Assembly: GCA_013202715.1 (NCBI GenBank) | Contig: JABMRF010000007.1 | Span: 8,566-72,565 of the forward strand | DNA length: 64,000 nt | Source of the DNA: Candidatus Kuenenbacteria bacterium | GTDB taxonomy: Bacteria > Patescibacteriota > Patescibacteriia > UBA11705 > JABHMO01 | Reading direction: 5' to 3' | Shown: positions 29,607 through 49,337 of the stretch, one piece after another | Position numbering within the stretch: the stretch's first letter is position 1 | Layout of the letters: every line of letters begins with the position of its first letter | The notes under the pieces: model-generated | What the model was told of the DNA's origin: nothing | The model's input: the letters and a program-made list of their open reading frames with translations, nothing else | Databases searched by the model: none | Position numbers and translations under genes: made by a program

Positions 29607-29681
29607 GGCCCCATCGTCTAGTGGTTAGGACGCATGGTTCTCATCCATGTAACCGGAGTTCGATTCTCCGTGGGGTCACCA
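29607..29681 (+). tRNA. tRNA-Glu (anticodon CUC)
   Basis: cloverleaf: acceptor GGCCCCA/TGGGGTC, D-arm CGTC-AGTGGTTA-GGAC, anticodon stem CATGG/CCATG loop TTCTCAT, T-arm CGGAG-TTCGATT-CTCCG, encoded CCA; starts 1 nt after murF stop. Confidence 0.85.
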
Positions 29682-29779: not shown

Positions 29780-30211
29780 ATGCAGGACAATAATAACAAT
29801 GAAATTACCTTAGAAAAAATCTGGCAGTATCTTCAGGAACACATGGTAACCAAAAAAGAACATGCGCAGTTAAGTGGCAAGGTTGATGTTATCAATGAGG
29901 AAGTTGGAAGATTAAGAGAGGATGTTACTGTTCTTAAGGCGGATGTTTCGGTTTTAAAAGAAGATGTTGGTATTTTGAAAGAAGATATGGCTGATATAAA
30001 ACCGCGGGTTGGCCATTTGCAAAATCAAATGGTAACCAAAGAGTATCTTGATAAAAAAACAGCAATTATTTTAGCGGAATCTGGCGCCAGACTAATGCGG
30101 CACGCAGAAAAAGATAAAACTTTTCGGCAAAAACTGGTTGATATATTCCGCAGTAAAACTTTTCCAAGTGAAGAGGGTGTGCGACAGTTGGAAGATTTGG
30201 CTAAGCAGTAA
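29780..30211 (+). CDS. hypothetical coiled-coil protein (heptad repeats EDV.VLK)
   Basis: 143 aa; REDVTVLKADVSVLKEDVGILKEDMADIK. Confidence 0.5.
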   Translation: MQDNNNNEITLEKIWQYLQEHMVTKKEHAQLSGKVDVINEEVGRLREDVTVLKADVSVLKEDVGILKEDMADIKPRVGHLQNQMVTKEYLDKKTAIILAESGARLMRHAEKDKTFRQKLVDIFRSKTFPSEEGVRQLEDLAKQ

Positions 30212-30286
30212 CAATCTGTCTAAAATTTGTTTTGAAGGAAATCTCCACGGTTGGTGGGGCTTTTTTATTTTTCTTTTAATAAAAAA

Positions 30287-30332
30287 TCTCCCCCGCGATG
30301 CGGGGGAGAATGAGGAGACCATGGTCTCCTCG
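30287..30332 (-). terminator. tandem GC-rich hairpins (GAGGAGACC/GGTCTCCTC and TCTCCCCCGC-GAT-GCGGGGGAGA) + U-run on minus strand
   Basis: downstream of minus-strand lipoprotein gene; second hairpin resembles 34344 terminator. Confidence 0.65.
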
Positions 30333-30339
30333 CGTTCGT

Positions 30340-31287
30340 TTATTTCTTTGTCTTCATGGCCGTCTCGATCCGGACGATGTTGGCAATGCCGATATCTTTG
30401 ACTGAACCGAGAAGGTCTTCTCGGACAGCCTCATAGGGAATATCATGCTTTGCCATCAATTTGAGAAGTCCGCCGATATTGCCCTCCATGGCATAGAGCA
30501 CGACCAGGGATGTGGCTGTATGTCTTACCGCGTCCGCGCAAACCTTGTATTTGTCATGCAAGGACAGAACGGTCCAGTTTGAGTAGATGCTGGTTTCCGT
30601 TTGGAAATACTCGCAGCGTCTCTCGGCGACAGGAACTCTGAGGTTCATAGGGAGGTTGTACTTCTCCCCAAGGGTGAATTTGTCTTCGTCGTTGGTTTCT
30701 TCGTCATTGAATGCTTCGAGTGCCAGCGGGACAATCATCCTCTCATAATCCAGAGAAAATGCCACGCTAATCGAAAGCCTGCTTTCATAGCTTCTCTCGG
30801 GATCATTGAAGAGCTTCATGACCAGTGGCAAGACTTTTTTATCGCGGTCCATACCGGAGTTGTTGGCAACGATGGCAGCCTCTTGCCAACGCTTACGGCT
30901 GACCAAGTAATCATAATAATCGTTGGCAATCTGGAGTTTGGCTTCGGGTGAAAACGAGTCAATAAGATATTCACTACAGGTTGCAATGTAAATAGCGCTT
31001 GGGCTACTCATACTGATTTTTTCCAGGGAGTCTTTGACTTCCTCTTTTATCAGCAGTTGCAAGTAGGCTCTGGCAGCTTCGACTGCATATTTATTCCCGT
31101 CCCGACTGAACCCATTATCTACTGGCCAGTTTTTCTCTCCATAGGTAGTACTCGCATACAGCATCGCATTCCAGTACATCCCATCTTCCATGAGCTCATC
31201 GTAGTGTGTCTGCCCTTCTGATTGGCAGCCGGCAAAAGCCAGCATTCCAACAACAATCAACGTCAGCTTGATACACAGATTTTTCAT
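30340..31287 (-). CDS. hypothetical lipoprotein (lipobox LAFAGC), GC-rich (~50%) gene
   Basis: MKNLCIKLTLIVVGMLAFAGC…; AAGGAG SD; composition far above window average. Confidence 0.6.
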   Translation of the reverse strand: MKNLCIKLTLIVVGMLAFAGCQSEGQTHYDELMEDGMYWNAMLYASTTYGEKNWPVDNGFSRDGNKYAVEAARAYLQLLIKEEVKDSLEKISMSSPSAIYIATCSEYLIDSFSPEAKLQIANDYYDYLVSRKRWQEAAIVANNSGMDRDKKVLPLVMKLFNDPERSYESRLSISVAFSLDYERMIVPLALEAFNDEETNDEDKFTLGEKYNLPMNLRVPVAERRCEYFQTETSIYSNWTVLSLHDKYKVCADAVRHTATSLVVLYAMEGNIGGLLKLMAKHDIPYEAVREDLLGSVKDIGIANIVRIETAMKTKK

Positions 31288-31493
31288 ACCTTTACTCCTT
31301 GTTTGATTTGTCAAAAAACTTCTAACCTGAACAAATCATTATAGCAGAAAAACAAAATTCTGTCAAGGGATGTGCAATTTTAGACAAAATATATGGATAT
31401 TTTGGCTTCTTCATTTTTTATTTTTTTGACTTTCACCCCACAAACAGTTAAGCTAGAATATAATATGTTATTTAACAATATAAGAGGTGCACC

Positions 31494-33245
31494 ATGCTGG
31501 AATTTGAATTTTTGGACTCAGAAAAACTTGAAAGCAGATATTTTCAGCTAGAAGACGCGGAGATCATGATTGATCGCGGTCTGAAAGGTGAAAATTGCGG
31601 ATTGGTTTATCCAACTGGAATTGGAAAAACTATTGTCGCTTTTTTTGTTATGGATCATTATCTGCGTAGCGGCAAAAAGGTCCTTTTTCTGGCTCATACC
31701 ACAGCGCTGATAAATCAGCACATGGAATCAGCCAGATCCTTGTTCAAGTTGCCGGACGAGAAGATCAATAAGATTACCGGCCGGATTTCAGAGAAAAAGC
31801 GGGTCAAGCTTTGGGGAGAAAGCAGAATTATTTTTGCCACTCCGCAAACCATTGATAATGAAATTAAAAAGGGAACAATTGACTTTGATAATGTCGGCTT
31901 TGTAGTTTTCGATGAAATGCACATGGCTGACAAAAAGTATGCTTATGTCGCACTAGCCAAGTTGGCAAAAGAAAAGGACATTCGAACAATTGGACTTACC
32001 GCATCGAGTGGTCGAGCAAAACGGATTGAAGTTCTGGAAGACAATTATAATATCAAATGGTGGGTCTATCGATCGGCTGAAGAATTAAAAAAGTTTGTTT
32101 TCCCGAAGCAACATCTGCCGATCATTATTGACTATCCTCGATTGCACCGACACGCCATGAAGTTCCTGCGAAGTAAAATTGTTTTAATCCATAACGAACT
32201 GGCCTCAACTGGCTTGATTGATCGGATTGAGGCAACTGAAGATACTGATAGGCGCTTTCCGTTTTATCGTTTGACCGAATTGAACAAGTTGTACCCACCA
32301 TTAAAGCGTTGGCTGGATAACCAAAAAAAGGAAAAACCATATTTTACAGATCCTATTAATGGCAAGAGAAGTTCCTGGCAGCATTTCATGGTGATGTATA
32401 TTGCTTATTACAAGCTGATGCATCTTCTTCACGTTTTTGTGACGGAAGGCTATGAAGTGTCACTGGAATACGTTGAAAAGATTCGATGTGAATTGGTAAA
32501 TAAAGGCACTCCAGAGCGACCGCACTACAGATATAATGCCGCTTTTGTGATTTTGTTTGATTACAATACCGAGCGTTTCATAAAGGGGCTCCATTATTTC
32601 ATTGATAATGAGATTGCCCATCCGAAGATTGCCAGGATTTTGGAATTGATTGAGGAATATAAAGATAGAAATTATCGGATGTTGGTTTTTTCAAATTTTG
32701 AAAGCACAGTGAAGGCTCTCAAAGAGTATCTAACGAAAATGGGCTATACGGTTGAAACTATTGCTGGCTCTAAGTTCATGAAGCCAAAAGAACAGCAAGC
32801 TGTTTTGGCCAGATTCAAAGAGCGCGAATTTCAAATTTTGTTGTCAACAACTGTGGTAGAGGCCGGCATTGATGTACCCAAGATCGATGTGGTGATTAAC
32901 TATTCAATGCCACTTACCGGTATTGCTCGGATTCAGCGAGGCGGTCGAGCCGGCAGAACTGCAGTTGGTTTGGTTTACTATTTGATCATGGAAAATTCAA
33001 ATGACAGCAGTTTGTACTATGCTGCCCGGTCAGATAATGTGGCTATGGTAAAGGAACTCAAAAAGCGTTTGACGATTCAAGCGCTCAGAGAGCAGGGACA
33101 TTTCTACCCAATCAGAGTGGTTCAGCACACATTACTGTTTGCTTCTGGATTTGAAGAAAGGGAAGAGTTGACTACTCGGCAAAGAGAGTCAAAAGGGCGT
33201 CGAGCACCAAGCAAGAAAAAGATTGTGAATCCCAAATTGCTATAA
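31494..33245 (+). CDS. SF2 helicase of the Hef/RIG-I/FANCM-like family (PTGxGKT Walker A, DEMH box)
   Basis: YPTGIGKT (motif I), VVFDEMH (II), …LLSTTVVEAGIDVP.IDVVINYS (V), QRGGRAGR (VI); ~190-aa insertion between RecA-like domains; no fused nuclease. Confidence 0.7.
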   Translation: MLEFEFLDSEKLESRYFQLEDAEIMIDRGLKGENCGLVYPTGIGKTIVAFFVMDHYLRSGKKVLFLAHTTALINQHMESARSLFKLPDEKINKITGRISEKKRVKLWGESRIIFATPQTIDNEIKKGTIDFDNVGFVVFDEMHMADKKYAYVALAKLAKEKDIRTIGLTASSGRAKRIEVLEDNYNIKWWVYRSAEELKKFVFPKQHLPIIIDYPRLHRHAMKFLRSKIVLIHNELASTGLIDRIEATEDTDRRFPFYRLTELNKLYPPLKRWLDNQKKEKPYFTDPINGKRSSWQHFMVMYIAYYKLMHLLHVFVTEGYEVSLEYVEKIRCELVNKGTPERPHYRYNAAFVILFDYNTERFIKGLHYFIDNEIAHPKIARILELIEEYKDRNYRMLVFSNFESTVKALKEYLTKMGYTVETIAGSKFMKPKEQQAVLARFKEREFQILLSTTVVEAGIDVPKIDVVINYSMPLTGIARIQRGGRAGRTAVGLVYYLIMENSNDSSLYYAARSDNVAMVKELKKRLTIQALREQGHFYPIRVVQHTLLFASGFEEREELTTRQRESKGRRAPSKKKIVNPKLL

Positions 33246-33330
33246 TAATAATACATGATTTAAAATTAACAAGATTAAGGCCTTCTTCGCTTTGTACTTT
33301 GTCGGAGCTTCGAAGGCCGCAGGAGGAAAA

Positions 33331-34335
33331 ATGGAAGAAAAAACTTCACTATTTTCCGGTATACATAAGCATGACGGAACTTGGGTCAAGGATTTGCCAG
33401 ATCGAGTTGGCGAAACGATTTTTGAGCGGTTCATGGTCTATGAGCCACCTGAAATTCGAGAGTCAAAGAACGATACGTTCTTTTTGTCAGTTGTGATCGG
33501 AGACAAAACCGGTCGCATCAAACTGACTATGTGGCAAGTTCCCATCTTTGACAAAGCAAAAGCACTGGCTATGTTTGAAGTTGAAAAGGTCTACACCCTT
33601 GAGGCCAGAGTTCGTCTATATCGAGGTCAGATCAACTTGAGCTTGAGCTATGCTGGCAAGGAATCCAAGCTTTGGCTTTGTGAACATTCAGATGACGAAA
33701 GTAAATCTGATTATCAATTTGCGGATTACTGTCAGGTCCCAAATGACTGGACAGTTGTCCCTGTTCAGGAAATGATTGAATTTGTGACAGATGTGATTCA
33801 GAATGTCGAACATGATGCATACAACAGGATTCTTCGGTCCCTTTGGGAAGATGAAGAATGGCGTGCTCAGTTCATAAAATGGCCGGCTGCCAAGTGGTAT
33901 CATCATGCCTATTACGGCGGATTACTTGAACACGTTTACGAAATGCTTCAGGGAGTGAACACATTTATTGTTCATTATCCGAACTTGAATCTGGACCTAC
34001 TCCGAACCGCAATCATTCTCCATGATGTAGGGAAGTTCAAGGAGTATCGTGTAGGAGTTCAGATTGAAACCGTGAAAAGAGCCTATAGAATCGGCCACAT
34101 GGTATATATTCTTTTGCAAGTCGATCGGCTTGTTCGTAAAAAGGAAATTGAAATTACTGAGGAAGATTTGGAAGATCTGATTCATTTGATTATTTCTCAT
34201 CACGGCGAAGTCGAGCTTGGCTTTGGCTCAGCTGTAAGCCCAGACCTACCGGAGGCAAAGATCCTTTACCAATTGGATCAGCTGTCCTCAAAAACCAATC
34301 AAGAGTACTTGAAATCAAGGCGCGAAGCGCTTTAG
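33331..34335 (+). CDS. OB-fold + HD-domain nuclease, YhaM (3'-5' exonuclease)-like
   Basis: N-terminal OB fold; HD motifs H.AYYGGLLEH, ILHDVGK, SHHG; AGGAGG SD; 85 nt after helicase stop. Confidence 0.6.
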   Translation: MEEKTSLFSGIHKHDGTWVKDLPDRVGETIFERFMVYEPPEIRESKNDTFFLSVVIGDKTGRIKLTMWQVPIFDKAKALAMFEVEKVYTLEARVRLYRGQINLSLSYAGKESKLWLCEHSDDESKSDYQFADYCQVPNDWTVVPVQEMIEFVTDVIQNVEHDAYNRILRSLWEDEEWRAQFIKWPAAKWYHHAYYGGLLEHVYEMLQGVNTFIVHYPNLNLDLLRTAIILHDVGKFKEYRVGVQIETVKRAYRIGHMVYILLQVDRLVRKKEIEITEEDLEDLIHLIISHHGEVELGFGSAVSPDLPEAKILYQLDQLSSKTNQEYLKSRREAL

Positions 34336-34343
34336 ACAAGTTA

Positions 34344-34374
34344 AGTCCCCCCCGCATTGCGGGGGGGACTTTTA
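34344..34374 (+). terminator. rho-independent terminator (GTCCCCCCCGC-ATT-GCGGGGGGGAC + U4)
   Basis: 11-bp GC stem + TTTT. Confidence 0.75.
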
Positions 34375-34582
34375 AAATCCAAAATGCAAAATGCCGTTCG
34401 GCCTCGAGCTCACGGCCGAGAGGTAAAACCACAGTTAAAATTCAGAATAAAAAATATTTTTTAAATTTATTATTTAAGGTATGTGGTTTTACATTTTTCA
34501 TTTTACATTCTGCAGCTCTTGCATTATTTATAAAAATATACTACAATAATACAAGATAAATAATCGGAGAGAATTAATAAAT

Positions 34583-34768
34583 ATGTTTGGATTTGAACAA
34601 CTAGGATTTAAAAGAGATAAGGAGGTTGCGCTTGGTAACCCTGTTTCTGCTTTAATTAAGGAGTTAGAGACCATTCCTGACGGAGAAAGAGTAGAGGCTG
34701 GCCAGATTATTCATGGATTAAATAGTGATGTAGCTAGCTTTTTATTTGAAAATAAAGATTCTTTATGA
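34583..34768 (+). CDS. hypothetical small protein (61 aa)
   Basis: GGAGA SD; stop overlaps next start (ATGA). Confidence 0.35.
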   Translation: MFGFEQLGFKRDKEVALGNPVSALIKELETIPDGERVEAGQIIHGLNSDVASFLFENKDSL

Positions 34769-35049
34769 ACGATACTCAAGTAGCTCAAATCGAAGGGCTT
34801 TTGAAAAATTCAGAATTAGATAATCGCTCGCAGGAGTTGATGCGGCAGTTTTTTAATTCTATTGCCGAACAGCCACAATATCCTAAGATCGTCAGTTTGC
34901 TGGAAAGATTTCCTTCTGTTTTTGAAAACTTTTGCAACTGCTTTCAGGTGAAGCGAGATTTTCTTAAACAAGGAAAAAGTGAAGAAGAATGGAATACTTT
35001 TGTTGCAAAGGAAGATGAGATGTTTGAGCAGATGGAGAAGGAAGAATAG
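34765..35049 (+). CDS. hypothetical small acidic protein (94 aa)
   Basis: translationally coupled to 34583 ORF. Confidence 0.35.
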   Translation: MNDTQVAQIEGLLKNSELDNRSQELMRQFFNSIAEQPQYPKIVSLLERFPSVFENFCNCFQVKRDFLKQGKSEEEWNTFVAKEDEMFEQMEKEE

Positions 35050-35244
35050 GTAATAGGTAATAGGTAATAGGTAATAGCTTATAGACTGAAGGGCTAAAAG
35101 GTCCTTTTTTTGTTTTTAAATAGTTATCCACAGGTGATCCTTGCTGTTCGTATTTTGTTCGGTTATAATAAATATATACGAACAGAAACCGAACTGGAGA
35201 ATAAAATTTTCAATTTCCAATTTCTAGTTTACAATAAATTTTCA

Positions 35245-35697: not shown

Positions 35698-36300
35698 ATG
35701 ACTCTCACAAAACGTCAAAGTGAAGTACTCAAATTTGTAAAAACATTTATCAAAGATTATGACTATTCGCCGAGCTATCGGGAGGTCGCAGATGGCCTAG
35801 GATTGTCCTCTCCAGCAACTGTGCATCAGCATTTGCAGACTTTGAAGAGTAAAGGATATTTAAATATGGATCCGGAGTCAGCTCGTGGACTTGAGCTGAC
35901 AAGTAAAGTAATGAGGCTGGCGAAATCAATTGAACTGCCTCTGGTTGGTTTGATCACTGCGGGTGCTCCAATTGAAGCGGTTGAAGAAAATGAAACTATG
36001 GCTGTGCCGGCTGATCTTGTTCCAGATGAAAATGCCTTTGTGCTGAAAGTCAGTGGAGAGTCAATGATCGAAGAAGGAATTTTGGACGGCGACTTCGTCG
36101 TAGTCGAACGTAATCATTCTCCTCAAAATGGAGATGTCGTGGTGGCTTTGCTAAATAATGCCTTTGCAACTTTGAAAAAATTCTACCGTGAAACAAATCG
36201 TATTCGTCTGCAACCGGCTAATTCTGCCATGAAACCGATTTATTGCAGAGATGTAGCGATTCGCGGAGTTGTGCGAGCTATAATTCGTAAGTTCAACTAA
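35698..36300 (+). CDS. lexA: LexA repressor (S24 peptidase)
   Basis: N-terminal wHTH; AG cleavage site (ITAGAP), GESM Ser and LKKF Lys catalytic dyad. Confidence 0.9.
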   Translation: MTLTKRQSEVLKFVKTFIKDYDYSPSYREVADGLGLSSPATVHQHLQTLKSKGYLNMDPESARGLELTSKVMRLAKSIELPLVGLITAGAPIEAVEENETMAVPADLVPDENAFVLKVSGESMIEEGILDGDFVVVERNHSPQNGDVVVALLNNAFATLKKFYRETNRIRLQPANSAMKPIYCRDVAIRGVVRAIIRKFN

Positions 36301-36301
36301 T

Positions 36302-36769
36302 ATGTGCGCAGGAATTACATTCCCAATCGATACAATAGATGCTTTTGAGCTGGATCAGTTTTTTACACCGGAAGAATTCAGAAAACAAAGAAAAGGGGAT
36401 TCAATTCAAACGTTCTTTTGGCAAAATAAACCCTTTTTACCGGCAGAGGATGAATCAGGAAATATTCATCTCTATCCTTGGGGCAATCGAGACAAGCTCT
36501 TGAAAATGCCAAAAACTGGTTGGGCCAGACTGGAATCAATTCAGGATGGCCGGTGGGACTACTTAGCGCCAAAAGCTGTCTGGATTCCAAGTCTGATGGG
36601 TTATGAAAAACGCAAATGGTTCAAAACCCCGGGAGGCCTCAAGGGCGTCCGCGTTCGTCTCCATAATACAACGCGGGTTTACATGTTAACAACAAAGGCC
36701 AATCAAGAATTTAGAGAATATACGGGGCATGATAGGATGCCGGTTGGAAAAATAGTTTATTTGAAATAA
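36302..36769 (+). CDS. hypothetical protein with Met-Cys N-terminus; possibly truncated SRAP (SOS-response-associated peptidase)-like
   Basis: MCAG… N-terminus and …YPWGNRDKLLKMPKTGWARLESI… resembling SRAP WG…INARAE segment; 2 nt after lexA stop. Confidence 0.35.
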   Translation: MCAGITFPIDTIDAFELDQFFTPEEFRKQRKGDSIQTFFWQNKPFLPAEDESGNIHLYPWGNRDKLLKMPKTGWARLESIQDGRWDYLAPKAVWIPSLMGYEKRKWFKTPGGLKGVRVRLHNTTRVYMLTTKANQEFREYTGHDRMPVGKIVYLK

Positions 36770-37096
36770 TTAATAAAATATGGCAAGGGAGTTGAATATT
36801 TACAAGCCCCGAACCACTTACGTACTTTGTTCGTTTGGGTTCAGGGCAAGCATGGATATTTAACTCCGCTCTTGCCGGAAAAAAAGTATGTCTAAAAGAA
36901 AAATAAAAAAAGCTTACAGAGAAGTCAAATGTTTTTGGCAAGATTTAACAATTAACATCTAAATTTATGAAACAAGTTACTTTCGTTCCGCTAACTCCGG
37001 ATTTAATTATTAAGATTAAAGTTTAATTATGACAAACGAGGAGCTTAAAAAGTCGATTCTTACGTTTTTGAGGAGATTGGTGGAATAAAAAAATTT

Positions 37097-37757
37097 CTGC
37101 CCCACTTTAGTGGTTTCAACTCCCTCTCATTGTGTTTTTGCTATGGGCTATAAATATTACCCTAACAACATGTATTTTATTACTTATAAAACCTTCATGG
37201 GAAAAAAGTTTTTTGATACAGATGAGAAAAAGGGGATAATTACAGGGCAAATCAAAAAAGCTCAAGAAAAATTAGAATTGGATGTAAGAGCTTTTGCTGT
37301 GATGTCTAATCACTATACTATCATCTTCTAGTTAAATGTATTTATGGATTAAATATTACAAAGTCTTTACAATTGATAAATGGCGGCGGATCCTTTTTGC
37401 TTAAAAAAATAACAGGAATTCATCAAAGTTTATGGGGAGAAGAAAAATTTAGCAAACTTCTCTATGATGAAGATTCTTATTGGCGAGTTTTTGTATATAT
37501 TATTGGTAATCCATTGAAACATAATTTAGTGAAGGATTTAAACGAATTAGAAAATTATAAACATTGTAATTATGGAGAACGCCTAAAAGAGTCTGATAAG
37601 GAGTCTTTGCATAATTTAATTTTGGAAAATCAGAAATTTGATTTTGAAACAGACGAGGCCTGGAAGAAGTTATATGGTAGTGCGGAAGAAACCACTAAAG
37701 TGGGGCAGAAATTGTTTAATTAGGATTGGTGTGGAAGAAACCACTAAAGTGGGGCAG
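37097..37757 (+). mobile_element. degraded REPtron-like element: RAYT/IS200-like Y1 transposase remnant flanked by inverted REP-like palindromes (CCACTAAAGTGG core)
   Basis: left ctgccccactttagtggtttc (37097-37117) is the reverse complement of right gaaaccactaaagtggggcag, present twice (37686-37708, 37734-37757). Confidence 0.6.
37110..37723 (+). pseudogene. RAYT/IS200-like tyrosine (Y1) transposase, disrupted by frameshift (two ORFs 37110-37331 and 37373-37723)
   Basis: …LDVRAFAVMSNHYTIIF* (HxH-like motif, cf. …YAYCLMPNHVHLL) then …SLWGEEKFSKLLYDEDSYWRVFVYIIGNPLKHNLV… (Y-containing C-terminal half) in a different frame. Confidence 0.55.
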
Positions 37758-38007
37758 AAATTTATTTATATGCTCGAACAAATCAACCAACAAATTGAAG
37801 TTTTAGTTGCATTTATGAAGGGCAAGGTCCTCCCCTTGTCTTTTTGTTGGAATGATAAAAAGTACAGCATCAACAAAGTCAATTTAGTTCACAGTGAAAG
37901 AATTGGCCGTGATAAATATTATTATTTTTCAGTGAGCGCAGGCGAGGATTATTTTAAATTACAATTTAATACCGAAAACAACAAATGGTTGCTAGCCGAA
38001 GCGTATT

Positions 38008-39222
38008 ATGCCAGCTAGAATTATTTTCCACATCGACATGGACTCTTATTTCGCGACCGTTGAACAGCAAGCCCGACCCTATCTTCGAGGCAAGCCAATT
38101 GTGGTCAGTGGAAAGGAGGGATCTCGGAGCGTGATTGTTGCTTCTTCAAAAGAAGCAAAAAAGTTGGGCGTCAAAACTGCCATGCTGCATCACGAAGCTA
38201 GAAAGCTTTGTCCGAACTTAACTTTTGTAGAAGGCGATGGTGTGAAATACGGATATTTATCTGGGCAAATGATTGAGGTTTTCAAGAATTATACAGATAA
38301 GGTTGAGGTTTTTAGTATAGACGAAGCTTTTCTTGATATGACTGGCCATTGTCAAAGTTTCAAACAGGCAATCGATAAAGCAAAGCAAATAAAAGCACAC
38401 GTCAAACAGAAACTTGGAGAGTGGGTAACTGCCTCGGTTGGAATAGCGAATAATAAACTGCTCGCCAAATTAGCATCAGGACTAGATAAGCCGGACGGCT
38501 TATTTTTGATTGACCAAAATAATTTGGATCAAGTCTTAAAAAAAATAAAACTAACTGACTTTTGTGGCATCGGAAAGAGAACTGAAAGTAATTTAGCGCA
38601 GTTAGGAATTGATAGCATTGAAAAATTGCAATCGTGGAAGCTCGACCCCTTGGTCAAAGTTTTTGGGCCGTCTTATGGAAATAAGCTTTATAATATGGCG
38701 CGCGGGATTTGTCATGATCCGGTTGTGTCTTATTTGAACCGACCTGAAGCGAAATCAGTCGGCCGGTCATATACTCTATCAAAAAATACTTATGATAAAC
38801 AAGAAATACTGACAGTTTTGTTACATTTGTGTGAAAAGGTGGGTCGCGAGCTTCGCCGAAAAAAATTGGCCGGCAAAACCGTAGTTGTTTACTGGCGATA
38901 TGAGGATTTTACTCATGCCGGAGCTCGGAAAACTTTTTTGGGTTACTTGAATGATAGCCAAGCCTTTTTTAATCTTGGAGAAGATCGAATTAAGAAATAT
39001 ATATTTCCCAAGGCCGTTCGCTTGGTCGGTATTCATGTCAGTAACCTGATCAAGGATTATAAACAGCTCCCGCTCTGGCTCGGCGAGAGAAAACAAATTG
39101 AACTTTTGCCAGCACTGGACAAAATAAATGATACTTATGGTGAATTGACAATCAAGCCGGCATATTTATTGAAATTAAAAAGGTTGAAGAAAAAAGTGGG
39201 TGGATTTAAGCTGCCTGATTAA
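38008..39222 (+). CDS. dinB: DNA polymerase IV (Y-family, DinB)
   Basis: IIFHIDMDSYFATVEQ…SIDEAFLDMTG… catalytic motifs. Confidence 0.9.
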   Translation: MPARIIFHIDMDSYFATVEQQARPYLRGKPIVVSGKEGSRSVIVASSKEAKKLGVKTAMLHHEARKLCPNLTFVEGDGVKYGYLSGQMIEVFKNYTDKVEVFSIDEAFLDMTGHCQSFKQAIDKAKQIKAHVKQKLGEWVTASVGIANNKLLAKLASGLDKPDGLFLIDQNNLDQVLKKIKLTDFCGIGKRTESNLAQLGIDSIEKLQSWKLDPLVKVFGPSYGNKLYNMARGICHDPVVSYLNRPEAKSVGRSYTLSKNTYDKQEILTVLLHLCEKVGRELRRKKLAGKTVVVYWRYEDFTHAGARKTFLGYLNDSQAFFNLGEDRIKKYIFPKAVRLVGIHVSNLIKDYKQLPLWLGERKQIELLPALDKINDTYGELTIKPAYLLKLKRLKKKVGGFKLPD

Positions 39223-39425: not shown

Positions 39426-40385
39426 ATGAAACAACCTGAAATTAACAAATTTTTAGCCAAATTGCTTGGTCAGGGTTTAGTTTACGCTCCAGTGAGAAAA
39501 GGGCCGGTTGTTTTGGTTGAACAAGTCGACTCGATTGATAGAATTGATTGGTCGGGCGATATACCGATTACAACTTTTAAATCTGTTTTTCTTCCACCAA
39601 AGGAAGTTCTGTTTGATAATAATAAAGCGGAGTTTGCAGACAAAATAAAAAAATTCGCCTGGGGTATGAATGTTCTTGACCTTCAGGCTTTTAGTTTATT
39701 TGAACAGGTTTTTGAAAAAGATATCTATTATCAGAAGCGACGACAAAATATTTTCATTATTGGATTTACAAATGGAATTGAAGACGATTTTCGAAAGTAT
39801 AAAGTCTTCCATCAAAAGTATGAGGAGAATGTCCTTGAGCATTTGATTTTTGATGTCTTCATCGAGCGACAGAAAAATGGCAACATGATTGTGTTTTCTG
39901 GTTCTGAAAAAGGACAACAGTTGCTCGAACAAAACGGAATCAAGGATTATGAAAATATCGAGTTTGCCGGATTAGTTCCTGAACAAGGAATTAATCCCAT
40001 AATTACTCGAAATCGTCAGGCAGTTGAGCTTGGTCGTGATAATCCAATTTGGGATGAGCTGGCAGAAATCTGTTTAGCTTGCGGGAAATGTTCAATCCAC
40101 TGCCCAACCTGTTTTTGTTTTGATGAGAAGGATCAGGCTGAGTTTGATTCTGTAAAAAAGGTCCGACAGTGGGGATCTTGCTTTTACCCTGAATTTTCAA
40201 AGACTGCCGGTGGAAACAAGGACTTGGATTCAGTGAAAAAGAAATTATATTTTTGGTACGAACATAAATTTGTGAGGATTCCTGATGAATTTAGTTATTA
40301 TGGCTGTGTGAGTTGTATGAGATGTTTCAAGGTTTGTCCTGTGGAAATAAATATTGCCAAGAATCTGCAAGCATTAAATAAATAA
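39426..40385 (+). CDS. hydB: group 3b [NiFe]-hydrogenase β subunit (2×[4Fe-4S] ferredoxin-like, HydB-like)
   Basis: CLACGKCSIHCP and CVSCMRCFKVCP cluster motifs; operon context. Confidence 0.65.
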   Translation: MKQPEINKFLAKLLGQGLVYAPVRKGPVVLVEQVDSIDRIDWSGDIPITTFKSVFLPPKEVLFDNNKAEFADKIKKFAWGMNVLDLQAFSLFEQVFEKDIYYQKRRQNIFIIGFTNGIEDDFRKYKVFHQKYEENVLEHLIFDVFIERQKNGNMIVFSGSEKGQQLLEQNGIKDYENIEFAGLVPEQGINPIITRNRQAVELGRDNPIWDELAEICLACGKCSIHCPTCFCFDEKDQAEFDSVKKVRQWGSCFYPEFSKTAGGNKDLDSVKKKLYFWYEHKFVRIPDEFSYYGCVSCMRCFKVCPVEINIAKNLQALNK

Positions 40386-40425
40386 AAAAAATCGCGCCCA
40401 AGATTGAGCGCGAAGTGGTTGTAGG

Positions 40426-40734
40426 TTATGGAAGCTGTTTTGATAGATCCTGATAGAACTTGTCTAACAGTTCATCCTCACTTTCAAATCCGGCAACAGC
40501 ATTGCCATGGTCTAGTTGCCAAGAAACATCAAACATACCGTTGTGAAAAATAAATCCAAGTTCGAACTCAGCAGTGTCCGGTTCACAACAGTACCAGGCT
40601 TGAAGACTTTTTCTGTTTTCTTGAAAGGCTTTTAAGATGTCCTCTCTTGTTTCAGAAGAGTTTGTCAATAGTTGTTTTGCCCTTTCCAGCAGTTTCATTC
40701 CCAAACATTCAACGATACTTTTTTGGTCATTCAT
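40426..40734 (-). CDS. hypothetical acidic protein (102 aa) antisense to hydrogenase operon
   Basis: only minus-strand ORF within the hyd cluster; no family recognised. Confidence 0.4.
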   Translation of the reverse strand: MNDQKSIVECLGMKLLERAKQLLTNSSETREDILKAFQENRKSLQAWYCCEPDTAEFELGFIFHNGMFDVSWQLDHGNAVAGFESEDELLDKFYQDLSKQLP

Positions 40735-40857
40735 GTTCGCCTCTCCAACTAGAGTAAGTTTAGTATTATATCATATAAATTGACCATTAGTGAATTATAT
40801 CACATAAAATTTATTTTGTCAATGGAGGATTATCTCGTTGTCTAATTTTACCAAAAA

Positions 40858-41655
40858 ATGAAGAATATTTACGAATTAAAACCGGCCCATGTTACAAAAG
40901 TAATTAAAGAAAATTCGATTACTAATACTTTTAATTTTAAATTAAAGAATCAAAATGAGTTCAAATTTTTAGCTGGCCAGTTTATGATGATTGGTGTGCC
41001 GGGATTTGGCGAGTGTCCGATTTCTATTTCATCCAATCCAAAGGACTCTACAAGGCATTTTAGTTTAACAATCCGAAGTGTTGGGGAATTGAGCGGTAAG
41101 TTAAATTCCCTTAAAGTTGGCGATAACGTTCTTGTGCGTGGTCCATTTGGAAATGGCTTTCCAGAAGTTACCAAAAATTTGATTCTGATTGGTGGCGGGT
41201 GTGGATTTATTCCACTTAGAAGTGTGTTTGAAGAAAATCGAAACCGTAAAGACATTAAACTTCAGGTTTTAGTTGGTTGTGCGACTCAGGATTCATTAGT
41301 ATTTAAAAGAGAATATTTAAAAATAAAAAATAAACACGATTTTGGATTAATTTTGGAACATGAAACAATGCCGGGATTTGCCAGACAAAAAGGATTTGTG
41401 ACGGATCTAATTAAGAAGAAAAAGCTGTTAAAAGATGCGCAAATCTTTGTTTGCGGGCCAGAGGTAATGTACAAGTTTGTTGCCAAGGAATTACTGGCAA
41501 AAAAAGTTGATCCAGCCAATATGTTTTTTTCACTTGAAAAAAGAATGCACTGCGGAGTTGGCGTTTGTCAACATTGCGCCATAGGAACAAAGTATGTTTG
41601 CAAGGATGGTCCTGTATTTTCGTATGATTTTTTGAAATTAAGTAAGTATTTATAA
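40858..41655 (+). CDS. hydG: group 3b hydrogenase γ subunit (FAD/NAD(P)-binding + C-terminal [2Fe-2S], PyrK/HydG-like)
   Basis: ferredoxin-NADP reductase-like fold; C-terminal CGVGVCQHCA cluster. Confidence 0.65.
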   Translation: MKNIYELKPAHVTKVIKENSITNTFNFKLKNQNEFKFLAGQFMMIGVPGFGECPISISSNPKDSTRHFSLTIRSVGELSGKLNSLKVGDNVLVRGPFGNGFPEVTKNLILIGGGCGFIPLRSVFEENRNRKDIKLQVLVGCATQDSLVFKREYLKIKNKHDFGLILEHETMPGFARQKGFVTDLIKKKKLLKDAQIFVCGPEVMYKFVAKELLAKKVDPANMFFSLEKRMHCGVGVCQHCAIGTKYVCKDGPVFSYDFLKLSKYL

Positions 41656-41667
41656 CTCTGAATTATT

Positions 41668-42141
41668 ATGAACATCATTTATAAGGAAAAAGTTCCAACT
41701 TATGTTTTTGTAACGGCAATTTTACTCATTACCTGTATTATTTTATTAATTATTTTAATGTCACAGCTCACCAGCAAGCCGATTGTGCTGGATCTGGGCG
41801 GAAAAGTTATTTTGTTGATTGTTTTGATTTTTAATATCGTAGTTTTGTTTTATTTTCGTGAACTGGTTATTATTGTTACTGAGAGCAGAATTCTGTTTGG
41901 TTTTGGGAAGTTTAGAAAAAAGTTTTATACCGGAAATATTGAAAGTATTGAGATTGACGATTATAAATTTTCAAATTATCTTGGCTATGGTATTCGATAT
42001 GGTCGTGATAAATCAATCGGCTATGTTCCCCGTGGTGGCAAAGGACTGAGAATGAAATTCAAAAATGAAAAGCGGATTTATTTTTTCTCAACTGACAGAC
42101 CTGATGAACTGAAGTTGCTTTTGGAAAAATATATTAAATAA
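41668..42141 (+). CDS. hypothetical membrane protein (2 TM + soluble C-domain)
   Basis: inserted between hydG and hydD. Confidence 0.45.
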   Translation: MNIIYKEKVPTYVFVTAILLITCIILLIILMSQLTSKPIVLDLGGKVILLIVLIFNIVVLFYFRELVIIVTESRILFGFGKFRKKFYTGNIESIEIDDYKFSNYLGYGIRYGRDKSIGYVPRGGKGLRMKFKNEKRIYFFSTDRPDELKLLLEKYIK

Positions 42142-42143
42142 TT

Positions 42144-42896
42144 ATGAAAAAAAGTAAAGTCAAAATCGGAATTTTTCCACTTACTGGCTGTGAAGGATGC
42201 TGTGTGGCGATTTTAGATTTGCCGGGAAAACTTTTAGAATTGCAAAGTAAGATTGAAATTGTTAACTTTCGTTTAATGGAAGAGGAAAGTCATTTGGAAA
42301 CAGAATCGTATGATATTGTTTTTGTCGAGGGTAGTCCGCTGACAGTGCATGACATTCAACTCTTGAAGCGTGTTCGAAAGCATTCAAAATATGTTATTTC
42401 AATCGGCTCTTGTGCTCACATAGGTGGAATTTATCATATGAAGCAGTATCATGATACAGATAAGATTCATAATTATGTTTATCGTGGAAAAAAAGGAATT
42501 GAAAATATTGATGTAAAACCACTAAGTGCATACGTTAAAGTCGATTTTGCACTGCCAGGATGTCCAATTACCGGCGAAGAGTTTTACGATTTTGTTTATC
42601 AACTCTTAATTGGTAAAGCGCCAAGTATTACTCAAAATCCGGTTTGCTATGAATGTCAAATCCAGGGCAATCAATGTTTATTGCAGCATGGCGATGTTTG
42701 CCTGGGTCCAATAACGCAGGGAGGCTGCTCAGCAATTTGTCTCAAATCAAAACAAGGCTGTTGGGGGTGTCGAGGCTTGGTTGAAGATGCAGAAGTGAGT
42801 AACTTAGTAAAAAAATTAAGAGAAAAATATTCGGATAAAGAAATTGCAAAGTTTTTTGAGGTGTTTGGGGTAAAAGAAATGATAAATAAAAAATGA
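42144..42896 (+). CDS. hydD: [NiFe]-hydrogenase small (δ) subunit
   Basis: GIFPLTGCEGCCVAILD… NuoB-like FeS-binding N-terminus, further Cys clusters. Confidence 0.75.
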   Translation: MKKSKVKIGIFPLTGCEGCCVAILDLPGKLLELQSKIEIVNFRLMEEESHLETESYDIVFVEGSPLTVHDIQLLKRVRKHSKYVISIGSCAHIGGIYHMKQYHDTDKIHNYVYRGKKGIENIDVKPLSAYVKVDFALPGCPITGEEFYDFVYQLLIGKAPSITQNPVCYECQIQGNQCLLQHGDVCLGPITQGGCSAICLKSKQGCWGCRGLVEDAEVSNLVKKLREKYSDKEIAKFFEVFGVKEMINKK

Positions 42897-42899
42897 TTT

Positions 42900-43349
42900 A
42901 TGGATAAAAAATTTCCAAAGGTGGGAATGGGGGTTATGATAATGCGTGATAATAAAGTTTTACTTGGTCTGCGTCAGGGTTCACATGGGGCAGGTGAATG
43001 GTCATTTCCTGGTGGGCATTTAGACTTTGGTGAATCTCTATTTACAGGTATCAAACGTGAGGCGATGGAAGAGACCGGATTAGAAATTGATGATTTGGAA
43101 GTAGTATCAGTTTCTGATGATTTTCGATACATTAAATCTGATGGAAAGCATCATTTAACGGTTGGAGTAAGAGCTAATTCGGTTGAAGGTGAATCCAGAA
43201 TCATGGAGCCTAATAAATGTCAGGAATGGCGCTGGTTTGGCTTGGAGGAATTACCAGAAGACTTGTTCGAAGCAACAGAAACAATGATTAATAATTACAA
43301 AAATAACCGACTTTATAAAGAAAATATTGATAATTATGAAAACCATTAA
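42900..43349 (+). CDS. NUDIX hydrolase
   Basis: Nudix box GGHLDFGESLFTGIKREAMEETGL. Confidence 0.8.
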   Translation: MDKKFPKVGMGVMIMRDNKVLLGLRQGSHGAGEWSFPGGHLDFGESLFTGIKREAMEETGLEIDDLEVVSVSDDFRYIKSDGKHHLTVGVRANSVEGESRIMEPNKCQEWRWFGLEELPEDLFEATETMINNYKNNRLYKENIDNYENH

Positions 43350-44598
43350 AATAAATCACATCGCTAAAACTGAAGGCCACCTAAGTTTTGTCGGCGCTAT
43401 GCTGGACAATAATTTTGCGCAGGCACATATTGAAACTGAGGAAGGCGCGCGCTTGATTGAAGGAATCTTGCTGGGCCGGAAATATTACGAGGCACCGATC
43501 ATAACTTCCAGAATTTGCGGAGTTTGTCCGATTGTGCACAATCTAACTTCAATCAAAGCAATGGAAAGTGCTTTGAATGTCAAGGTCACACCGGAAATAA
43601 TATTGCTCAGAAAAATTCTAGAAAATGCGCAGATAATTCACAGCCATGCTATCCATGCTTACTTTTTTTCCTTTCCGGATATTATTGGCGTTTCTAATAA
43701 TTTCAATTTGATAAATAAATTTCCCAAGGAGTCGAAAATTGCGCTCGAAGTACGAGATTGGGGCGTGCAATTGGCTCGAATTATCGGTGGCAGAACTGTG
43801 CATCCGATCAATAGCGTGATTGGTGGGTTCAACGTTGAGCCGGATTTGAAAGAGCTTGATGAATTTATGGCTATGAAAGATGAAGTTTTGAAAAAGGCGG
43901 CTCAGATCTACAATTTTGTAATTAAGTACAAGCTTCCTAAATTTCAGCGACCGACAAATTATGTTAGCCTGAAATCAAATAGTGAGTACGCTGTTTATGA
44001 TGGCAAAATATATTTTTCAGACAACAAGAGCTATGATTCAGCGGAAACATTTTTGAGGGATGTGCAGGAAATAGTTTTACCTCATGAAAAGGTAAAGCGA
44101 ACGCAACATTTGGAGCGTGCCTTTATGGTCGGCGCACTGGCGCGACTGAATAACAGTTTTGACCAATTAAATCCAGAAGCCAAGAAGGCTTGGAACAAAT
44201 TGAAAATTAAACTGCCATGTTACAATTCATTTTATAATATTTTGGCGCAGGTGGTTGAAATTGTAAATTGTATTGAGGAACTCGAGAAGGATTATAAGCT
44301 ATATAAGAAAATCAGCGACAAGAAATTGTTGGTTGAAGTCAAACCGCGATCCGGAAAGGGATACGCAGTGATGGAAGCTCCTCGTGGACTTTTGTATCAT
44401 GAATATGAATTAAATGCGCAGGGAAATATTTTGCACTGCAATGTGATTACACCAACTGCCATGTTTTTGGCCAACTTGGAAAAGGATCTGGAACAGTTAT
44501 TGCCACAAATCAAAAATTATTCTGACAAAAAACAAAAAGATTTGATCAAAACCTTAATTCGCGCCTATGATCCTTGCATCAGTTGCGCAACCCATTAG
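43336..44598 (+). CDS. hydA: [NiFe]-hydrogenase large (α) subunit
   Basis: N-terminal RICGVCPIVH (RxCGxCxxxH) and C-terminal DPCISCATH (DPCxxCxxH) Ni-Fe ligands. Confidence 0.85.
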   Translation: MKTIKINHIAKTEGHLSFVGAMLDNNFAQAHIETEEGARLIEGILLGRKYYEAPIITSRICGVCPIVHNLTSIKAMESALNVKVTPEIILLRKILENAQIIHSHAIHAYFFSFPDIIGVSNNFNLINKFPKESKIALEVRDWGVQLARIIGGRTVHPINSVIGGFNVEPDLKELDEFMAMKDEVLKKAAQIYNFVIKYKLPKFQRPTNYVSLKSNSEYAVYDGKIYFSDNKSYDSAETFLRDVQEIVLPHEKVKRTQHLERAFMVGALARLNNSFDQLNPEAKKAWNKLKIKLPCYNSFYNILAQVVEIVNCIEELEKDYKLYKKISDKKLLVEVKPRSGKGYAVMEAPRGLLYHEYELNAQGNILHCNVITPTAMFLANLEKDLEQLLPQIKNYSDKKQKDLIKTLIRAYDPCISCATH

Positions 44599-49336: not shown

Positions 49337-49337
49337 T

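Follow-up and report, generated by a model that had tools for sequence, protein, structure and literature searches.

The 64,000-nt stretch of DNA analysed here (the window, to which all coordinates refer) belongs to contig JABMRF010000007.1 of a Candidatus Kuenenbacteria bacterium, a member of the candidate phyla radiation (CPR, or Patescibacteria). It carries two adjacent genes that encode a superfamily 2 (SF2) helicase of the Hef/FANCM type and a YhaM-type nuclease composed of an OB fold and an HD domain. On balance, the pair is probably a chromosomal, vertically inherited replication and repair module of a single CPR lineage (Kuenenbacteria, Falkowbacteria and their relatives), in which a clamp-tethered helicase that remodels forks or branches is combined with a 3'-5' exonuclease of single-stranded DNA (ssDNA). 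The kinship of the helicase to Hef and FANCM, a motif enriched in the tails of its clade and the synteny with lexA and dinB back this reading, and with it the stalled-fork repair role that the original prediction, made from the sequence alone, had offered as one option. The components, a Hef-clade helicase, a YhaM nuclease and a helicase-exonuclease repair pair, are of known kinds; their combination is new, and no new category is involved. Both genes are confirmed at the predicted coordinates and have the following features.

31494–33245, plus strand: helicase-only Hef/FANCM-type SF2 helicase, 583 aa (open reading frame (ORF), hidden Markov model (HMM) searches, PDB, AlphaFold2 (AF2) and Foldseek)
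33114–33242, plus strand: disordered basic C-terminal tail of the helicase, residues 541–583 (AF2 predicted local distance difference test (pLDDT) below 50 over 541–583)
33228–33242, plus strand: NPKLL, the last five residues of the helicase, at the position of the QxxLF motif of its relatives (alignment)
33321–33326, plus strand: Shine-Dalgarno sequence AGGAGG of the nuclease gene (sequence)
33331–34335, plus strand: YhaM-type OB-fold and HD-domain nuclease, 334 aa (HMM searches, PDB, AF2 and ligand alignment)

The helicase is nearer in sequence and fold to Hef, and then to FANCM, both DNA-fork enzymes, than to RIG-I, MDA5 or Dicer. The NCBIfam model of the Hef nuclease, PRK13766, matches it with an E value of 7e-82 over model positions 6–513 of 781, although the score of 275.7 bits does not reach the cut-off of 610 for a full-length Hef equivalog. 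The top sequence match in the PDB is the helicase of P. furiosus Hef, 1wp9 (1e-61), after which come FANCM and then LGP2, RIG-I, Dicer and MDA5. An AF2 model built on 18 homologues (pLDDT 81, predicted template-modelling score 0.70) displays the domain order RecA1, helical insertion domain, RecA2, long C-terminal helix (503–533) and disordered basic tail (541–583). Foldseek again places 1wp9 first for this model, with an E value of 2e-33, a template-modelling (TM) score of 0.81 on the target and 30% identity over 517 columns; the runner-up is FANCM (9el5) at about 20% identity, and the RNA sensors lie at 18–20%. Motifs I (YPTGIGKT), II (FDEMHMA), III (TAS) and VI (QRGGRAGR) are intact, and the ATPase/helicase motifs are invariant across 18 homologues save for DEMQ in three. 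The assignment to the Hef clade, first made on the Walker A and DEMH motifs, is thus borne out by PRK13766, 1wp9 and Foldseek. So is the lack of a fused nuclease, as the match to the Hef model ends at 513 of 781 and no ERCC4 domain was found with Pfam. The large insertion noted at first is indeed present and is no oddity: it is the normal insertion domain of the Hef/FANCM clade, an all-helical segment (helices 216–371) at about residues 213–375 between the RecA-like domains, as judged from the AF2 model and its superposition on 1wp9.

The clade is as rare in bacteria as had been supposed. When genome contigs were scanned with the single helicase protein as query there was no match; a profile scan of one genome per species, covering 185,579 species, then gave the loci, and the best 80 of them comprise 4 from CPR bacteria and 76 from archaea. 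At the protein level the clade contains about 25 CPR clusters at 39–53% identity (Kuenenbacteria, Falkowbacteria and 'Parcubacteria'), beyond which identity falls to about 30% with archaeal Hefs. A protein identical to the window's helicase is recorded for Candidatus Kuenenbacteria as a DEAD/DEAH box helicase family protein. Three further proteins (P0027, P0030 and P0043), two of which end in QLSLF, share about 30% identity with the helicase; none has a YhaM neighbour, and their taxonomic context is ambiguous. The helicase may be archaeal in origin.

Past residue 540 or so, an alignment of 18 CPR helicases is basic and unconserved except for a peptide at the very end, which takes the forms QLDLF, QPELF, QLSLF, QLNLF, QMDLF and QGNLF. 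QL[SD]LF is the established bacterial consensus for binding to the beta clamp. An exact QxxLF occurs within the last 20 residues of 16 of the 25 CPR proteins, compared with 1 of 672 control windows of 20 residues taken elsewhere in the same proteins, and most of the CPR proteins without an exact match carry near-variants such as WPELF, EPELF and LPELF. The nearest archaeal relatives, from Micrarchaeota and others, are likewise helicase-only proteins (500–520 aa) with a similarly basic tail, and they end in GQSRLSDF, GQARVTDF, GQAKMTDFF and the like; this pattern, GQxx[LIM]xDF, is a PCNA-interacting peptide (PIP) box in the same position. Since QxxLF stands in the CPR tails where the nearest archaeal tails hold a PIP box, the peptide may well be a clamp tether that was adapted to the host clamp after transfer between domains. 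In 70 more distant archaeal helicase-only homologues, the last 20 residues contain a strict PIP box in 10 cases and QxxLF in 11, and no C-terminal motif of the clamp type was found in full-length, nuclease-bearing Hefs. Archaeal Hef does bind PCNA, through a contact reported in the interdomain linker (PMC7776575).

The partner is an OB and HD nuclease of the YhaM type, as first proposed; the YhaM model, the solved structures, the AF2 fold and the metal ligands all agree on this. NCBIfam PRK13480 (YhaM) matches with an E value of 6e-35, and solved YhaM/Cbf1 structures match over residues 26–324 (9h3f, 3e-27; 9o7t, 4e-22). Six metal ligands have been described in B. subtilis YhaM, H163, H193, D194, H250, H251 and D274 (PMC12107432), and H201, H231, D232, H290, H291 and D316 of the CPR nuclease align with them; across the CPR clade and canonical YhaMs, H291 is kept in at least 90% of rows and the other five are invariant. 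The AF2 model of the monomer (pLDDT 81) consists of an OB barrel (29–106) and a helical HD domain, with YhaM as its best fold match. The barrel resembles SSB/RPA folds in a structure search and keeps the OB aromatic positions of YhaM; the Pfam tRNA_anti-codon OB match (E 0.0012) falls under the Pfam cut-off, and the region aligns with the YhaM OB fold in 9h3f and 9o7t. Because its 120.8 bits lie far under the YhaM equivalog cut-off of 460 (NCBIfam), the CPR nuclease is a divergent subfamily and no orthologue of Firmicute YhaM. The subfamily is marked by a 13-residue N-terminal extension holding a conserved TSQFxGKHK, which is disordered in the model, by some 20 residues inserted behind the OB fold and by the absence of the canonical C-terminal tail. 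Its start is most likely the ATG at 33331, because AGGAGG lies 4 nt upstream and every homologue begins at the equivalent Met; the TTG listed at 33292 is probably unused. The 85-nt gap between the helicase stop and this ATG, and the Shine-Dalgarno sequence within it, stand in the sequence as originally read.

Transcription signals frame the two genes as follows.

31432–31464, plus strand: promoter-like region, TTCACC-16-TAGAAT with an overlapping TATAAT at 31459–31464 (predicted by consensus scan and sequence)
31467–31479, plus strand: conserved 13-nt element GTTATTTAACAAT, family pattern GTTMDTTRACAAT (position conservation across loci)
34343–34375, plus strand: intrinsic terminator of the two-gene unit, with a 13-bp G+C stem, 3-nt loop and U run (fold)

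By these predicted signals the helicase and nuclease genes form one promoter-to-terminator unit, and their operon-like pairing is supported by the promoter region, the short gap and the terminator. The latter is strong (the fold of 34330–34440 has -45.4 kcal/mol, z-score -5.6), in line with the G+C-rich terminators first noted around the module; the lipoprotein gene is not a boundary of it. Across loci, the gap between the two genes ranges from an 8-nt overlap to 85 nt. A hairpin in the window's gap (33279–33317) was considered as a regulatory element and rejected, as it folds no better than shuffled sequences (z-score -1.3). Upstream of the helicase, the -10-like TAGAATATAAT at 31454–31464 is followed after 3 nt by GTTATTTAACAAT, which lies 15 nt before the ATG and has one exact copy in the whole window. 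The corresponding element GTTMDTTRACAAT lies 24–50 nt ahead of the helicase start codon in ten or more other loci, which represent several lineages (L001, L003, L006, L010, L012, L093, L095, L096, L101, L102 and L104; L001–L104 are the loci of helicase homologues that were compared with the window), and the DNA around it is otherwise unalignable between loci. The pattern was derived from the compared sequences themselves, and the evidence is therefore the conservation of its position and not the number of matches. We regard GTTATTTAACAAT as a candidate operator or leader element.

The pair occupies a chromosomal slot that is shared between lineages and, in the window, is delimited by the following features.

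29607–29681, plus strand: tRNA-Glu(CTC), right after murF, the conserved left anchor of the slot (tRNA search, synteny)
29780–31314, both strands: lineage-variable insert, made up of a 143-aa coiled-coil ORF (plus) and a 324-aa lipoprotein gene (minus) (locus comparison)
34583–35049, plus strand: two overlapping small ORFs of 61 aa (34583–34768) and 94 aa (34765–35049) (ORFs, conservation)
35146–35194, no strand assigned: candidate LexA operator, twin GTTC-N7-GTTC boxes on either side of the -10 in the promoter of the lexA unit (motif, conservation)
35698–36300, plus strand: lexA (ORF, homology)
38008–39222, plus strand: dinB, Y-family polymerase (ORF, homology)

Twelve distinct lineages, the window included, had enough flanking DNA for comparison, and in 8 of them the HD gene lies directly 3' of the helicase gene (window, L001, L003, L006, L010, L012, L094 and L098), with the paired proteins 41–56% identical. 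The nuclease clade itself consists of 8 CPR clusters at 44–56% identity, after which identity drops to about 33% with ordinary YhaMs, and none of the 76 archaeal helicase loci has a YhaM-type neighbour. The syntenic order runs PBP2, murF, tRNA-Glu(CTC), a variable segment, helicase, HD gene where present, another variable segment, two small ORFs, in some loci a four-helix IVP-family gene, and then lexA, a 155-aa gene and dinB. The same tRNA-Glu is found in L001, L003, L006, L008, L010, L094 and L098. Individual loci shorten the order in different places: lexA directly follows the HD gene in L010, the small ORFs and lexA directly follow the helicase in L008, L097 and L099, and the helicase directly follows tRNA-Glu in L094 and L098. 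In most loci that reach far enough downstream the helicase is linked to the cluster of small ORFs, lexA and dinB, the exception being L001/L002, where about 6 kb downstream contain none of them. Because the position is fixed across lineages only 40–50% identical, the pair appears to have been inherited vertically for a long time. The original prediction weighed conserved adjacency against housekeeping status and vertical descent, and it fares half well: the genes are neighbours in 8 of the 12 lineages, yet they are vertically inherited in a fixed housekeeping slot beside lexA and dinB. In a rough neighbour-joining tree without support values, which is indicative only, three HD-less helicases lie at the base of the CPR clade, and because of this the linkage of the helicase to lexA may be older than its pairing with the HD gene.

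We propose the following mechanism for this fork-repair module. The helicase would be a Hef/FANCM-type translocase on double-stranded DNA, brought by its tail peptide to clamps at stalled forks, gaps and branch points, where it would remodel or unwind the branch by fork regression or strand displacement. This would expose a 3'-ended single strand, such as a nascent leading strand or a 3' flap; the OB fold of the co-transcribed, metal-dependent YhaM-type exonuclease could then capture it, and the binuclear HD site would digest it in the 3'-5' direction. Such a division of labour would match the archaeal Hef–HAN–PCNA system, except that an HD nuclease would replace the RecJ-like HAN and the beta clamp would replace PCNA. 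In Thermococcus, Hef is bound by HAN, a 3'-5' exonuclease specific for single strands (PMC5717133); on regressed forks Hef stimulates its activity towards the nascent leading strand, and both proteins bind PCNA (PMC5717133; PMC7776575). This separate partner, HAN, is a closer archaeal parallel to the CPR nuclease than the fused ERCC4 nuclease of Hef with which the original prediction compared it (PMC5717133). B. subtilis YhaM has been described as a ring-shaped, ssDNA-specific 3' exonuclease under LexA control, for which the authors postulate an unidentified partner (PMC12107432). The MutS gene 3.7 kb upstream of the helicase in L099 was counted as supporting genomic context. We infer that the substrate is DNA rather than RNA, that the clamp is bound and that the two proteins are coupled physically or functionally.

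Several points weigh against this scheme. The window's own helicase ends in the degenerate NPKLL, and clamp binding is thus least certain for this very gene. The HD gene is absent beside the helicase in 4 of the 12 lineages (L008, L013, L097 and L099), in whose loci no replacement nuclease was found with Pfam or tblastn, and the nuclease must there be dispensable or encoded elsewhere. Gene order is strongly conserved in small CPR genomes, so the linkage to lexA and dinB may in part reflect ancestry. The GTTC-N7-GTTC operator was not found upstream of the helicase even with up to three mismatches allowed; control of the operon by LexA and the SOS response, which we had considered, is unsupported because no LexA-box-like site lies ahead of the helicase as a counterpart to the candidate operator. 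Lastly, RNA is also a substrate of YhaM enzymes in several species, and mutation of yhaM does not render B. subtilis sensitive to DNA damage (PMC12107432).

The activity of YhaM on RNA raises the question of whether the pair serves RNA decay or surveillance instead, as a minimal degradosome- or exosome-like unit in which a RIG-I/Dicer-related helicase unwinds structured RNA for a 3'-5' exoribonuclease. The helicase clade does include RNA-dependent ATPases, the helicase promoter lacks a LexA box, and YhaM was first described as a 3'-exoribonuclease that aids nanoRNA and mRNA 3' trimming (PMC2731908; PMC12107432). We nevertheless consider this unlikely: the DNA enzymes Hef (30% identity, TM score 0.81) and FANCM head the matches by a clear margin, the RIG-I-like receptors stand at 18–20% identity and their C-terminal RNA-end-binding domain is absent here, a tail motif of the clamp-binding type makes little sense in RNA decay, and the constant neighbours are lexA and dinB. 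A variant, in which the helicase strips RNA from R-loops at forks and YhaM degrades it, fits the same anatomy and is compatible with it. The two genes might also share a transcription unit through frozen gene order, with an independent fork helicase and a general 3' exonuclease co-located but uncoupled. The four lineages whose helicase has no adjoining HD gene speak for this, as do the basal position of three such helicases in the rough tree, by which the HD gene may be a later insertion, and the marked conservation of synteny across the whole region. It is rather unlikely all the same, given that the CPR YhaM subfamily has been seen solely beside the helicase wherever context is available, that the N-terminal peptide and the insertion, both peculiar to its clade, suggest that it has adapted to a partner, that spacing is tight to the point of overlapping reading frames and that Hef–HAN provides a precedent (PMC5717133).

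Two further possibilities depart more widely from a role at forks. In a DNA-uptake or processing module, the nuclease would trim the 3' ends of incoming ssDNA, as YhaM does during transformation of B. subtilis, and the helicase would be a ComFA-like motor in DNA-scavenging CPR cells. CPR bacteria are believed to rely on nucleic acids from outside the cell, which would suit such a role. Transformation of B. subtilis also requires YhaM (PMC12107432), but with no competence genes beside the two genes, either in the window or at the compared loci, a tail motif that points to the replication clamp, and lexA and dinB as neighbours, we judge it very unlikely. Least probable of all is the other option of the original prediction, an uncharacterised helicase-nuclease anti-phage system with Cas3-like logic that was acquired horizontally. 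In its favour are the Cas3 architecture of an SF2 helicase plus HD nuclease, a helicase clade foreign to bacteria and weak, sub-threshold Cas3/HD and generic helicase matches in PADLOC and NCBIfam. The PADLOC search that had been recommended, run with PADLOC-DB 2.0, returned only partial matches to generic RecA2 and HD parts of many unrelated models, none of them system-specific, and in NCBIfam cas3_core (37.7 against a cut-off of 102) and cas3_HD (18.8 against 43) both remain sub-threshold. As the prediction had itself remarked, there is no CRISPR context: the surroundings contain no cas genes (Pfam annotation) and no CRISPR-like array (tandem-repeat check). No close relative was found on the viral contigs scanned, and the slot between murF/tRNA-Glu and lexA is fixed in lineages about 40–50% identical, a sign of old vertical inheritance. 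The surrounding genes belong to core metabolism and the cell wall, with rsmH, tgt, an SPFH protein, PBP2, murF, lexA, dinB, hydrogenase subunits, pgk and eno among the window's other genes, together with two cofactor-independent phosphoglycerate mutase (iPGM) genes, mltG/yceG and metG. Recent horizontal acquisition of the pair was rejected on composition, as the G+C contents of the helicase (0.410) and nuclease (0.431) genes lie inside the range of the window's other ORFs (0.312–0.44). The PADLOC, viral-contig, array, neighbour and G+C checks being all negative, the defence reading is not supported.

Returning to the fork-repair module, we tentatively extend it into a more specific history, which is possible though rather less than probable. 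A CPR lineage may have captured a helicase-only Hef of the DPANN type, changed the PIP box in its tail into a QxxLF motif for the beta clamp and recruited a remodelled YhaM as dedicated partner, giving a bacterial Hef/FANCM pathway of fork rescue that may stand in for functions of the RecG/RecQ type in reduced genomes. Fork remodellers of the Hef/FANCM kind are regarded as an archaeal and eukaryotic speciality, bacteria using RecG and others, and this would be a clean natural case of a fork factor that was moved across domains and re-wired to the host clamp. It would also mean that the partner type long sought for YhaM nucleases is a helicase; the pair suggests such a helicase partner for the YhaM family, for which a recent structural study had proposed a partner (PMC12107432). 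The parallel with Hef–HAN, in which a non-homologous 3'-5' exonuclease joins the same helicase, would then represent convergent assembly of a pathway. More generally, the module offers a concrete hypothesis for the handling of DNA damage in CPR bacteria, a group in which the set of repair pathways is poorly known. A non-exhaustive literature search found no work linking YhaM with Hef or describing such bacterial Hef-type helicases.

On the left of the pair, other loci hold different genes between tRNA-Glu and the helicase. The coiled-coil ORF and lipoprotein gene of the window are a lineage-specific insert outside the module, because in L094 and L098, which lack it, the helicase follows the tRNA directly; the lipoprotein gene is consequently no module boundary, as had been suggested. 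Its G+C content was put at about 50% and is 0.471 (47.1%) when measured, although it is indeed the sole compositional outlier, about 3.4 standard deviations above the other ORFs (mean 0.378, standard deviation 0.027), which suggests a recent insertion next to tRNA-Glu. On the right, the small ORFs, four-helix-bundle gene and lexA (35698–36300) that had been noted downstream are all present. Both small ORFs are conserved in eight lineages; the 94-aa protein is 43–74% identical among them, always between helicase (or HD gene) and lexA, and has no family assignment, with only meaningless weak matches. Right past its stop codon there is a perfect heptamer repeat, (AATAGGT) x 4.7, at 35045–35077, followed downstream by a terminator-like hairpin at 35088–35107. 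In a Falkowbacteria lineage (L003, 8993–11893; also L004 and L005), a major-vault-protein-like protein of 966 aa with Pfam MVP_shoulder and Vault_3 matches is encoded between the HD gene and the small ORFs.

The twin boxes ahead of lexA lie one in the -35/-10 spacer and one just past the -10, and they are kept in three other lineages. They are similar to the direct-repeat LexA box type known in Alphaproteobacteria (PMC8565304) and make a candidate CPR LexA operator of that type. The promoter is shared by four loci (window 35120–35200, L003 12650–12745, L005 8990–9085 and L010 8833–8928) in the order GTTATCCACAG, -35 TTGC/TTGAC, GTTCGnnTTnTGTTCGG in the spacer, TATAAT and a second, inverted GTTC-N7-GTTC copy; GTTATCCACAG, ahead of the -35, is a perfect DnaA-box-like 9-mer. 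Between the candidate operator and lexA stands the four-helix-bundle gene of the 23S-rRNA-intervening-sequence family (PF05635, 35245–35631), also present in L003/L005, which is probably co-transcribed with lexA. Right after lexA comes the 155-aa gene (36302–36769), 68–71% identical in L010, L097 and L099; its product begins with an invariant MCAG and has GHDRMP in its C-terminal part. The MC... N terminus and HDRMP are reminiscent of SRAP/YedK-type proteins, but an assignment to them drew no support from Pfam, PDB or BLASTP and is at most a lead. The long non-coding gap that follows contains a G+C-rich CCCCGAACCACTTACGTACTTTGTTCGTTTGGGTTCAGGGC with GAAC/GTTC elements (36790–36850) and no Rfam match. 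Further on, still ahead of dinB, two adjacent ORFs of 73 and 116 aa (37110–37723) without Pfam match resemble the two parts of a single gene that has been disrupted, and an 81-aa ORF (37773–38018) overlaps the start of dinB; the latter is 51–65% identical in the same place in L010, L097 and L099 and has a weak, sub-threshold match to DUF6504. The segments 39426–44598 and 47777–50921 contain NiFe-hydrogenase-related genes (Fer4_22, FAD/NAD-binding subunit, NiFeSe large subunit) and two tandem iPGM paralogues. In L099, the MutS gene (42–1343) upstream of the HD-less helicase encodes a C-terminal linker with QATLPL, similar to the hexapeptide clamp-binding motif.

Among known systems, Cas3 has the same pairing of HD nuclease and SF2 helicase, and the resemblance to a split Cas3 that had been pointed out holds to that extent; the Cas3 models are sub-threshold, however, and the CPR HD domain belongs to the YhaM type and is accompanied by an OB fold, with no Cascade or cas genes and no array. 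RecG, RecQ–RecJ and B. subtilis MrfA–MrfB embody the logic of an SF2 motor on branched or damaged DNA and an exonuclease, and MrfAB is a two-gene unit of helicase and 3'-5' exonuclease. Their homology to the CPR pair is limited to the generic SF2 core, with RecG models in NCBIfam scoring on the RecA2 domain of the helicase alone, and their nucleases are of different families (DnaQ-like, DHH). The YhaM/Cbf1 enzymes of Firmicutes (B. subtilis, S. aureus) share the OB and HD domains and the six metal ligands with the CPR nuclease, which differs from them in its N-terminal peptide, post-OB insertion, helicase partner and lack of the canonical C-terminal tail, at about 30% identity. B. subtilis YhaM is tied to LexA by its control (PMC12107432), whereas the CPR promoter has no LexA box.

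The remaining comparisons are with the relatives of the helicase. Eukaryotic FANCM, the second-best match in structure and sequence (9el5, about 20% identity), is a fork-remodelling translocase on double-stranded DNA with a PCNA interaction (cited in PMC7776575), but it is a far bigger protein with a degenerate ERCC4 domain and numerous partners. The helicase-only Hefs of DPANN archaea and Nitrososphaerota (about 500–520 aa) are the nearest relatives outside the CPR, with 27–32% identity and the same architecture. CPR and DPANN-type Hefs have the basic tail in common, which in Micrarchaeota ends in a clamp-type peptide, the PIP box; the DPANN and Nitrososphaerota proteins have a Pfam PF21210 insert-domain match that the CPR clade lacks. 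The archaeal Hef, HAN and PCNA of Pyrococcus, Thermococcus and Haloferax also provide a parallel, with a homologous helicase core that includes the helical insertion domain (30% identity to 1wp9, TM score 0.81), a single-strand-specific 3'-5' exonuclease partner, a short clamp peptide in a disordered region and a proposed role at stalled forks (PMC7776575; PMC5717133), these last features being predicted on the CPR side. Unlike archaeal Hef, the CPR helicase has no ERCC4/XPF endonuclease or HhH2 domain; unlike the DHH/RecJ-like HAN, its exonuclease is of the OB and HD YhaM type and is encoded in the helicase operon of a bacterial host; and in place of the archaeal PIP box, its putative clamp motif is of the bacterial QxxLF type.

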